Sequence record: MH355584.1
Reading direction: 5' to 3' (one strand)
From: Escherichia phage vB_EcoM_JB75
DNA: 64,000 nucleotides
The notes below the pieces were generated by a model. It was not told the DNA's origin and did not search any database. It saw only the letters and a program-made list of their open reading frames with translations. Positions 23,771 through 24,766 of the stretch are shown here, piece after piece (the first letter of the stretch is position 1; each line of letters begins with the position of its first letter). A program made the translations under genes and the position numbers.

Positions 23771-24384
23771 TGATTAAATTGGTATTCGCTTATTCTCCAA
23801 CTAAAACAGTCGAAGGCTTTAATGAATTAGCATTCGGTTTAGGTGATGGTTTACCATGGGGACGAGTTAAAAAGGACCTCCAAAATTTTAAAGCTCGTAC
23901 CGAAGGTACAATTATGATTATGGGTGCTAAAACGTTCCAGTCATTATCTACATTACTTCCTGGTCGTAGCCATATTGTGGTGTGTGACCTTGCGCGTGAT
24001 TATCCTGTAACTAAAGACGGCGATTTAGCACATTTCTATATTACATGGGAACAGTACATAACTTATATTTCTGGCGGCGAAATTCAAGTATCAAGTCCTA
24101 ATGCACCATTCGAGGCTATGCTTGACCAGAATTCTAAAGTAAGTGTAATTGGCGGGCCTGCTCTGTTATATGCTGCATTACCTTATGCAGATGAAGTAGT
24201 TGTTTCTCGCATCGTTAAAAGGCATCGTGTTAATTCAACTGTTCAGTTAGATGCAAGTTTTCTTAATGATATAAGCAAGCGTGAAATGGCTGAAACGCAT
24301 TGGTATAAAATAGATGAAGTAACAACCCTTACGGAATCAGTATATAAAAATGAAATAACGCGTGGCGGAAAATATGAATTTTAA
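23770..24384 (+). CDS. frd: dihydrofolate reductase (204 aa)
   Basis: [57 protein letters not shown] matches recalled T4 DHFR; the C-terminus is about 11 aa longer than T4 (193 aa). Confidence 0.9.
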
Positions 24385-24721
24385 TTATTATCCTATTCTA
24401 TTAGAAAAAGACGCGAAACAGCCAAAATGGCAAGGTCCTCAGTTTATTAAAGGTGTTTATCAATTAGTAGTTCCTAAAGACAAGATTTATAGTAGTTGTT
24501 TCACTGAATCCGCTTGTAGTATTTTTGGTAATAGTTCTCCGTATTGGAATTTTGACATAAAGCTGGATAGAAATATCGATATTTGGTTGAAAGCTATGGA
24601 TATTGGTAATATCACGTTTGATGAGAATAATTATCATATTATTGGTCGCTTTTCCAAACGTGGCAAAGAATTATACTTCACGCCTGAAATTGAGAGAAAA
24701 TTTGATGCTAAACCGTATTGA
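24374..24721 (+). CDS. hypothetical protein (115 aa) inserted between frd and td
   Basis: ORF from ATG 24374 ([15 protein letters not shown]...) overlapping the frd 3' end; no motif recognised. Confidence 0.5.
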
Positions 24722-24725
24722 TTAT

Positions 24726-24750
24726 TTAGCTTCATAAAATGTATTATAAT
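24726..24750 (+). promoter_or_regulatory. possible middle promoter for td
   Basis: Mot-box-like TTAGCTTCA, 10 nt spacer, TATAAT, in the 45 nt gap before td. Confidence 0.4.
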
Positions 24751-24766
24751 TTATATAAGGTACTAA

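Follow-up and report, generated by a model that had tools for sequence, protein, structure and literature searches.

A constrained small gene between frd and td of T-even phages, probably lost by deletion in T4

Introduction

In phage T4, the genes for dihydrofolate reductase (frd) and thymidylate synthase (td) reportedly meet in an overlapping ATGA junction, which is said to have been described by Purohit and Mathews in 1984. The annotation of NC_000866 shows this arrangement, with a Frd of 193 aa whose gene overlaps td by 4 nt, as a preliminary description of the locus studied here had noted. The free-standing endonuclease genes of T4 (mobE between nrdA and nrdB, the seg genes, and I-TevI in td) are optional ORFs of the nucleotide-metabolism region and are polymorphic among T-even phages. 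Another optional ORF, located between frd and td, is annotated in hundreds of T-even genomes as encoding a hypothetical protein and is already catalogued in a PHROG family (PHROG 1928). Its annotated names include RB32ORF229c (RB14 and RB32), ar1_242 (AR1), and RB3_232 (RB3).

Here, we analyzed a stretch of 64,000 nt (one strand, 5' to 3') of Escherichia phage vB_EcoM_JB75 (MH355584.1), hereafter called the window, where an ORF of 115 codons (ORF115) separates frd from td. ORF115 is the same gene as those named above, with 98 to 100% amino acid identity and the same position and orientation. Nothing of substance distinguishes it from these T2-type genes, and the window pairs a frd extension caused by a run of five A (as in RB3) with an intronless td (as in T2). 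We propose, with a probability of about 0.7, that ORF115 is a long-resident gene of the frd-td slot and the first of an old array of three genes, that the overlap of T4 arose by deletion of this gene, that the C-terminal tail of Frd in the window is a separate slip, and that the ORF115 protein would act by binding.

Organization of the frd-td region

The plus strand of the window carries, in this order, frd.3, frd.2, frd.1, an ORF of 81 codons, frd, ORF115, td, nrdA.2, nrdA.1, and nrdA, in the genome of a mosaic Tequatrovirus that shows ca. 97% identity to its best database matches across 16 kb. The frd gene (23770..24384, plus strand) encodes 204 aa with a Pfam DHFR_1 domain (E = 2.4e-19). 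The protein is 97% identical to T4 Frd in a whole-protein alignment, and its residues 1 to 193 are colinear with the Frd of T4 and T2. ORF115 (24374..24721, plus strand) extends from an ATG at 24374 to a TGA at 24719-24721 and encodes a protein of 13.6 kDa with a pI of 8.5. A putative Shine-Dalgarno sequence, GGCGG (24364..24368, plus strand), judged from the sequence alone, lies 5 nt 5' of this ATG. The start codon is conserved among homologues, including the one in L026, an uncultured T4-like contig. We also considered a GTG at 24362 as the start and rejected it, since the homologues, including that of L026, whose ATG overlaps the frd TGA, begin at MNFNYY. After ORF115 comes a spacer of 45 nt (24722..24766, plus strand), identical in T2, and then td (24767..25627, plus strand), which encodes 286 aa and is uninterrupted, lacking a group I intron. 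No Rfam match to an intron or other RNA element was found in 23000-26500. The layout given in the preliminary description, with an 11-aa extension of frd, an ORF of 115 codons, and a 45-nt spacer before td, is thus present in the sequence.

The frd extension

We aligned the window with T2 and T4, and then with RB3 and RB69 added. These alignments place the origin of the frd extension in a run of A residues, of which there are five in the window (24346..24350, plus strand) and three in T2, T4, and RB69. With these two additional A, the frd TGA is no longer read in frame, and the gene gains 11 codons up to a TAA at 24382-24384 that lies inside ORF115, leaving an overlap of 11 nt between the two genes. 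RB3 has the same A5 run and an annotated frd of 615 nt, and an ungapped match of 81/81 nt across the extended junction occurs in at least 16 GenBank records (among them RB3, RB5, RB6, RB7, RB9, RB10, PhiZZ30, ZCEC14, ZCEC15, Phaginator, and several ESh phages). The recurrence of the variant, together with the length of frd in RB3, indicates that it is real and not a sequencing error.

T2 carries ORF115 together with a normal frd of 193 codons. Since the extension stems from the two extra A, the extension and ORF115 are two independent features, a point missed in the preliminary description. The idea that the extension is ancestral was rejected: in all other genera Frd stops right past the conserved ESVY (0 to 4 aa beyond it, and 1 to 4 aa in four of these genera), which makes the 11-aa tail derived. 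This tail is a lineage-specific slip of two A, common to RB3-like phages and unrelated to the presence of ORF115.

Occurrence and selection

A tblastn search for the ORF115 protein matched 554 phage records, of which 362 show at least 90% amino acid identity. The remaining matches (192) showed less than 60% identity and were found in phages of Klebsiella, Enterobacter, Citrobacter, Raoultella, and other hosts. Among the 536 Tequatrovirus-like records matching the region, 354 (about two thirds) carry ORF115. The protein is 100% identical in T2, T6, AR1, and Sf24, and a protein with 98 to 100% identity occupies the frd-td slot of T2, T6, RB3, RB14, RB18, and AR1. The ORF also lies at the frd-td position in RB5, RB6, RB7, RB9, and RB10. 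The view, taken when the locus was first described, that ORF115 was inserted here does not fit with its presence at the same site in about 360 records, including T2, T6, RB phages, and AR1. We found nothing in the literature on RB32ORF229c, phrog_1928, or an ORF between frd and td, nor in the screens of accessory and anti-defense genes of Tequatrovirus.

ORF115 is a genuine gene under strong purifying selection. Nei-Gojobori counts on six Tequatrovirus alleles gave 21 synonymous and no nonsynonymous differences between the window and T2, 13 and none between the window and RB3, and 11 and none between the window and a further locus (L008). The 21 synonymous differences to T2, with no nonsynonymous one, argue against a chance ORF. 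Because every one of them is synonymous in the plus-strand frame, the minus-strand ORFs in 24464-24735 were rejected as coding. The dN/dS ratio of ORF115 in well-diverged pairs ranges from 0 to 0.06, next to 0.03 to 0.24 for frd and 0 to 0.09 for td, so ORF115 is at least as constrained as these two enzymes. Its dS (0.14 to 0.44) is comparable to that of frd (0.13 to 0.29) and lies inside the range of td (0.10 to 1.03). Its residence in the Tequatrovirus gene pool is therefore as old as the diversity now seen in its neighbors. Its GC3 (0.26) is the same as that of the neighboring genes.

Mobile-element readings

The preliminary description suggested the insertion of an accessory gene or a remnant of one. 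Relative to T4, ORF115 is indeed an extra, dispensable (accessory) gene, but neither an insertion event nor a mobile remnant is supported. A repeat scan revealed no terminal inverted repeats of the mobile-element type, only repeats of 8 to 12 nt at chance level, and the base composition is native, the GC3 of ORF115 being equal to that of its neighbors. RB3 has ORF115, the td intron, and I-TevI, and the window and T2 have ORF115 with an intronless td. The occurrence of ORF115 with and without the intron and its endonuclease shows that the two polymorphisms are independent.

A more specific version of this idea would make ORF115 a free-standing homing endonuclease, or the remnant of one, at the td locus, spreading by cutting ORF-less genomes as I-TevI, mobE, and seg genes do. 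The gene shows a presence/absence polymorphism within Tequatrovirus at a known mobile-element locus, and it is annotated as a "putative homing endonuclease" in the BASEL phages AugustSocin, KarlGJung, FriedrichMiescher, and TadeuszReichstein. However, no GIY-YIG, HNH, LAGLIDADG, or other nuclease domain was found in 43 family members at E values up to 1. The domain searches gave only scattered single-member chance matches (best E = 0.011), none of them to a homing-endonuclease family, and NCBIfam gave none for the four members tested. No catalytic domain or motif of the GIY-YIG, HNH, LAGLIDADG, PD-(D/E)xK, or EDxHD type could thus be recognized. The family has no invariant acidic or histidine residues, and a fold search returned no nuclease above noise. 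The protein, at 115 aa, is also shorter than T4 MobE (141 aa) and I-TevI (245 aa). Finally, the gene keeps its position across eight genera with a vertical-like divergence, and its occurrence does not depend on the td intron. Unlike mobE, the seg genes, and I-TevI, ORF115 thus lacks a nuclease domain or catalytic residues, has a position conserved across genera, is under strong purifying selection, and bears no signs of mobility. Taken together, these comparisons make an endonuclease very improbable; the reading appears largely refuted, and they lend no support to the label carried by some records.

Homologues and the slot array in Tevenvirinae

Diverged homologues (30 to 66% identity) lie directly 3' of frd in at least seven other genera of Tevenvirinae. 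Homologues in the frd-td slot were found in Jiaoda-, Kanagawa-, Marfa-, Moon-, Gelderland-, and Risoevirus, the genera being confirmed from the records or by taxonomy look-up. The start of the homologue coincides with the end of frd or falls within it in Mineola (Jiaodavirus), IME523 (Kanagawavirus), F48 (Marfavirus), and CF1 (Moonvirus). We built an HMM of the family and scanned all fetched loci with it. Each of the 22 non-T4 loci first examined has a family member in the frd-td interval, in the same orientation as these genes, and 11 of the 22 carry two tandem paralogues. The set of loci includes STML-198 (Gelderlandvirus) and Cronus (Risoevirus). The same position is occupied in five further loci (L026, L027, and L038-L040), and CC31 (Karamvirus) also has a family member. 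In the second paralogue, a long form, ca. 20 aa are inserted after the QxKW motif. The HMM found no paralogue elsewhere among the ORFs of the window.

The closest relatives outside Tequatrovirus (P0002, 66% identity, and P0003, 63%) are encoded on two uncultured T4-like contigs, immediately 3' of frd. One of these two homologues has an ATG overlapping the frd TGA and shares its first 21 nt with the window. JS98 (Dhakavirus) has a gap of 202 nt between frd and td that holds an unannotated ORF of 68 codons, whose ATG overlaps the frd TGA and whose product is 81% identical to that of the third slot gene of L026 and 71% to that of F48.

If the short form is called gene 1, its long-form paralogue gene 2, and the 68-aa gene gene 3, the slot exists in five states. 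It is empty in T4 and RB69, and it holds gene 1 only in T2-type Tequatrovirus (including the window) and Jiaodavirus. Genes 1 and 2 are present in IME523 and PEi20 (Kanagawavirus), Moonvirus, Gelderlandvirus, and Risoevirus, all three genes in L026, Marfavirus, and CIP9-like phages, and gene 3 only in JS98. In most genera, the frd stop is overlapped or directly followed by the start of gene 1, and the last gene of the slot runs up to or into the start of td. The five states are explained with the fewest assumptions by an ancestral array from which genes were lost differentially. The ancestral slot would have held up to three small genes, of which different lineages kept different subsets.

Loss in T4 or gain in T2-type phages

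The flanks of the T4 junction are common to T4 and the window, and the T4 junction equals the left and right flanks of the segment found here joined together. Relative to it, the window has 417 nt (ORF115 and the spacer) plus the two extra A between frd and td. T4 and RB69 read GT(A/G)TATAAATGAAACAATACC, where the frd TGA lies within the ATGAAA of td. T2 reads GTGTATAAATGAAATAACGCG, followed by ORF115 and the spacer, and then GGTACTAAATGAAACAATACC, so that joining the two flanks of the T2-type segment gives the T4/RB69 junction TATAAATGAAACAATACC. The segment that T4 lacks measures 417 nt in T2-type phages and has TAAATGAAA at both ends, the left copy being limited to 8 nt in the window. There, the left motif AAATGAAA (TAAATGAAA in T2) occupies 24348..24355 on the plus strand and supplies an ATG in the frame of ORF115, followed by TAA. 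The right motif, also AAATGAAA, occupies 24765..24772 on the plus strand (TAAATGAAA at 24764-24772), 417 nt away from the left one. If these copies recombined, the product would be exactly the T4/RB69 junction. The T4 state would then result from a precise deletion between two copies of (T)AAATGAAA, by recombination or replication slippage, the direction of the change being the conditional part of this scheme.

The opposite direction deserves attention, because the genera without the family, represented by JS98 and RB69, are the nearest to Tequatrovirus. The Frd and NrdA of Dhakavirus are 78% and 89% identical to those of Tequatrovirus, and those of Mosigvirus 58% and 87%; moreover, the junctions of RB69 and T4 are identical. 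The common ancestor of Tequatro-, Mosig-, and Dhakavirus could have had the direct ATGA overlap, and the ancestor of Tequatrovirus could have acquired ORF115 from a distant T4-like phage. The route would be recombination in the conserved 3' end of frd and 5' end of td, after which the allele would have spread by homologous recombination. The 63 to 66% identity of ORF115 to its homologues in L026 and L027, when Frd reaches only 48%, could also mean lateral transfer. Against this, JS98 keeps gene 3 of the array at 81% identity to L026. Its retention implies that the T-even clade inherited at least part of the array and that slot genes are in general better conserved than Frd. Around the junction, T4-type and T2-type sequences are ca. 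98% identical in their flanks and show no donor-like tract. Within Tequatrovirus, ORF115 has diverged at synonymous sites as deeply as the neighboring genes, and its GC3 matches theirs.

The repeat at the ends of the segment bears on the same question. The preliminary description proposed a check for flanking direct repeats, and one was found (9 nt in T2, 8 nt in the window). In T2, it resembles the target duplication expected under a gain. However, the repeat equals a motif that is frequent at stop/start gene junctions: the window contains 10 copies of TAAATGAAA, compared to 3.6 expected. Since this 9-mer is common in the genome, its presence at both ends needs no target-site duplication. Counts of exact junctions in IMG/VR (10 of the T4/RB69 type, 3 of the T2 type, and none of the window type) are too small to tell anything. 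All in all, we regard a gain in Tequatrovirus as unlikely. The loss of ORF115 by T4, rather than its acquisition by the window, is the more parsimonious reading of these sequence comparisons.

The classic frd/td overlap of T4 does not represent T-even phages in general and is probably a derived deletion in an old, differentially eroded array of three genes. This calls for caution when T4 serves as the annotation reference. The old T2 record (AY310907.2) leaves ORF115 unannotated, JS98 likewise has a conserved slot ORF without annotation, and some records mislabel ORF115 as a homing endonuclease.

Protein family, predicted fold, and function

The only family matched by ORF115 is PHROG 1928 (E = 8.4e-36; residues 4 to 111 against positions 2 to 125 of a 126-position profile), which has no assigned function in that database. 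No meaningful match to Pfam, NCBIfam, PADLOC, or the PDB sequences was obtained with the single sequence or with a profile of 43 sequences, in line with the earlier remark that the protein shows no recognizable motif. In PADLOC, one family member matched AriAB with an E value of 0.032, which is not meaningful. When 1.84 billion cluster representatives were searched exhaustively with the HMM, only 38 clusters were returned, all from T4-like phages. They consist of stand-alone proteins of 95 to 139 aa, except for a fragment of 37 aa and a repetitive protein of 899 aa that is an apparent chance match.

Across the 43 family sequences, W19, G91, K95, and G97 are invariant and Q16, G27, Y29, F93, and F102 nearly so; no Asp, Glu, or His is invariant. 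ORF115 conforms to all the family motifs, Q-x-K-W, (H/K)-G-(I/V)-Y, G-N, and I-G-R-F-x-K-x-G-x4-F-x-P, through residues Q16, W19, G27, Y29, N79, G91, F93, K95, G97, F102, and P104. The calculated pI exceeds 8 for most members. The AlphaFold2 model built from the 43-sequence alignment (pLDDT of 92.4, pTM of 0.86) comprises strands at 6-12 and 27-34, three short strands, a helix at 68-76, a strand at 80-82, and a hairpin of strands 86-96 and 99-104. The protein is thus predicted to be a beta-barrel with one helix.

The order of elements in the model (b1-b2-b3-helix-b4-b5) is the same as in OB-fold domains, such as the HIN domains of p204 and AIM2, the OB domains of Teb1, RPA, and Cdc13, the S1 domain, and the N-terminal domain of RecO. 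About 60 to 70 residues superpose at 3 to 4 Å, a weak resemblance and not a sign of membership. ORF115 shares with such domains its small size, its slightly basic character, and the conservation of aromatic and lysine residues. A PDB fold search with the model gave no significant match, and the matches in BFVD were all uncharacterized proteins of T4-like phages (PM2, Muldoon, Cronus, and Aeromonas phages). The absence of a conserved acidic or histidine residue argues against a nuclease or another enzyme. We would therefore describe ORF115 as a small binding protein that is non-catalytic and, in a weak sense, OB-like. It is an orphan under unusual constraint, its fold is predicted with confidence and lacks a significant match in the PDB, and it always occurs together with the genes for dihydrofolate reductase and thymidylate synthase. 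The practical weight of the finding is ordinary, as the gene was already catalogued.

ORF115 belongs to the frd-td-nrdA-nrdB operon and has the same orientation as these genes. In most genera, moreover, the slot genes overlap or abut frd and td, an arrangement that favors co-expression with dihydrofolate reductase, and the ORF115 protein would be made with this enzyme off the same early/middle transcript. Its mode of action would probably be the binding of a partner (nucleic acid or an enzyme of dNTP synthesis) rather than catalysis. As a guess, we favor an accessory factor that would bind the thymidylate/dNTP-synthesis module or its mRNA or DNA, the gene neighborhood being the sole link to nucleotide metabolism. 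As T4 and RB69 lack the gene, it is dispensable in the laboratory. A bolder combination, which we hold to be quite doubtful, is that the family is an unrecognized OB-like, non-catalytic subunit or regulator of thymidylate/dNTP synthesis in T-even phages and that the frd/td overlap of T4 is a deletion scar. ORF115 could then tether dihydrofolate reductase and thymidylate synthase to DNA, gp32, or mRNA, and sixty years of T4 genetics would have missed it because T4 deleted it.

The protein could also have a role unrelated to thymidylate metabolism, as a host-takeover or anti-defense factor that inhibits a host or defense protein early in infection, the operon providing early expression only. Its small size, non-enzymatic character, restriction to phages, and variable presence are typical features of such factors. 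The family's confinement to T4-like phages (the 38 clusters in the search described above) points in the same direction, as do the BFVD matches, limited to uncharacterized proteins of these phages. Anti-defense genes usually evolve fast and move between loci. ORF115, however, has a dN/dS near 0 and a position fixed across eight genera, which fit this role less well, and neither a meaningful PADLOC match nor a mention in the literature was found for it. We consider a takeover or anti-defense function possible but not probable, and we keep the accessory binding factor as the leading guess.

The spacer and the expression of td

T4 middle promoters that depend on MotA have a box (a/t)(a/t)(a/t)TGCTT(t/c)A located ca. 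12 bp upstream of a TAnnnT -10 element. The preliminary description noted a Mot-box-like promoter in front of td, and the pattern is indeed present in the spacer, as a match at the level of the consensus only. A MotA-box-like GCTTCA stands at 24729-24734 (plus strand), followed by a -10-like TATAAT at 24745-24750 (plus strand) or TAATTT at 24747-24752. The whole, at 24726-24752, reads TTTAGCTTCA-N10-TATAAT or, with the alternative -10, N12-TAATTT, with an A replacing the T of TGCTT. A relaxed MotA-box/-10 pattern has 18 matches in the window and 9 expected, and this enrichment of only 2-fold is the reason for not reading the site as more than a consensus-level match. A generic sigma-70 scan listed a single 9-of-12 site there, which does not exceed others nearby in strength. 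A Shine-Dalgarno sequence for td, AAGGT, occupies 24757-24761 (plus strand), 5 nt 5' of its ATG. The td of the window thus has its own Shine-Dalgarno sequence and promoter-like site, whereas the td of T4 has a start codon overlapping the frd stop. From these sequence features, it is plausible that the td of T2-type phages has its own promoter and ribosome-binding site and that the td of T4 relies on read-through and coupling from frd.

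Organization and start of ORF115 and its relatives

In the T2-type phages (Tequatroviruses carrying ORF115, the 115-aa gene between frd and td), the sequence corresponding to window 24350-24376 reads ATG AAA TAA CGC GTG GCG GAA AAT ATG. The first ATG overlaps the frd stop and is in the ORF115 frame, the TAA being the sole interruption before ORF115 itself. By comparison, the ORF115 homologue of an uncultured T4-like contig (L026) starts at the very ATG that overlaps the frd TGA. The approximately 24 nt that separate both ATGs in Tequatroviruses may correspond to a secondary insertion or to a decayed N-terminus.

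Many genera carry two ORF115-family paralogues in tandem, the 3' one being a "long form", as exemplified by four of the fetched loci (L004, 2817-3176; L005, 2790-3143; L006, 2787-3134; L026, 5332-5673). The long form is distinguished by an insertion of about 20 aa, positioned after the QxKW motif and containing a motif like PTI(A/S)(E/Q)Y..NP. In the Risoevirus Cronus the order is reversed, the second, more divergent family member lying upstream of the first and not downstream. The 202-nt frd-td "gap" of the Dhakavirus JS98 (NC_010105) is filled by an unannotated 68-aa ORF on the minus strand (6217-6420 of the fetched locus, L025), the start ATG of which overlaps the frd TGA. This ORF shares 81% identity with the third gene in the L026 frd-td array (5670-5876) and 71% with gp172 of the Marfavirus phage F48.

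One NCBI protein of 195 aa (P0012) is chimeric, joining an unrelated N-terminal part to an ORF115-family C-terminus. Its final 45 residues match the C-terminus of the Jiaodavirus family member (e.g., P0008) almost exactly. The chimera, from a Klebsiella phage, probably reflects either a deletion or faulty assembly.

ORF115 is labelled "putative homing endonuclease" in MZ501052 (AugustSocin), MZ501066 (FriedrichMiescher), MZ501089 (KarlGJung), and MZ501106 (TadeuszReichstein). Domain, motif, and fold evidence all fail to support this function, and the label therefore looks like annotation by position.

Neighboring differences from T4

Between frd.1 (23272-23514) and frd, which in T4 are separated by just 70 nt, the window carries an 81-aa ORF (23525-23770, + strand). 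The stop codon of this ORF and the frd start codon overlap as TAATG. It is annotated as hypothetical in RB3 (RB3_234); the 255-nt interval at this position is left without annotation in the T2 record (AY310907.2). Compared with T4, this ORF counts as another "extra" gene, in the immediate vicinity of the frd-td one.

The td gene of the window (24767-25627) is uninterrupted: the group I intron and I-TevI are absent, and there was no Rfam match. In contrast, the intron and I-TevI are both present in RB3, with which the window has the ORF115 and frd-extension (11-aa Frd tail) alleles in common. Further downstream, a spacer of 51 nt separates nrdA (26185-28449) from a 392-aa ORF (28501-29679) that presumably represents nrdB without an intron. 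In T4, mobE and nrdB.1 stand between nrdA and an intron-bearing nrdB.
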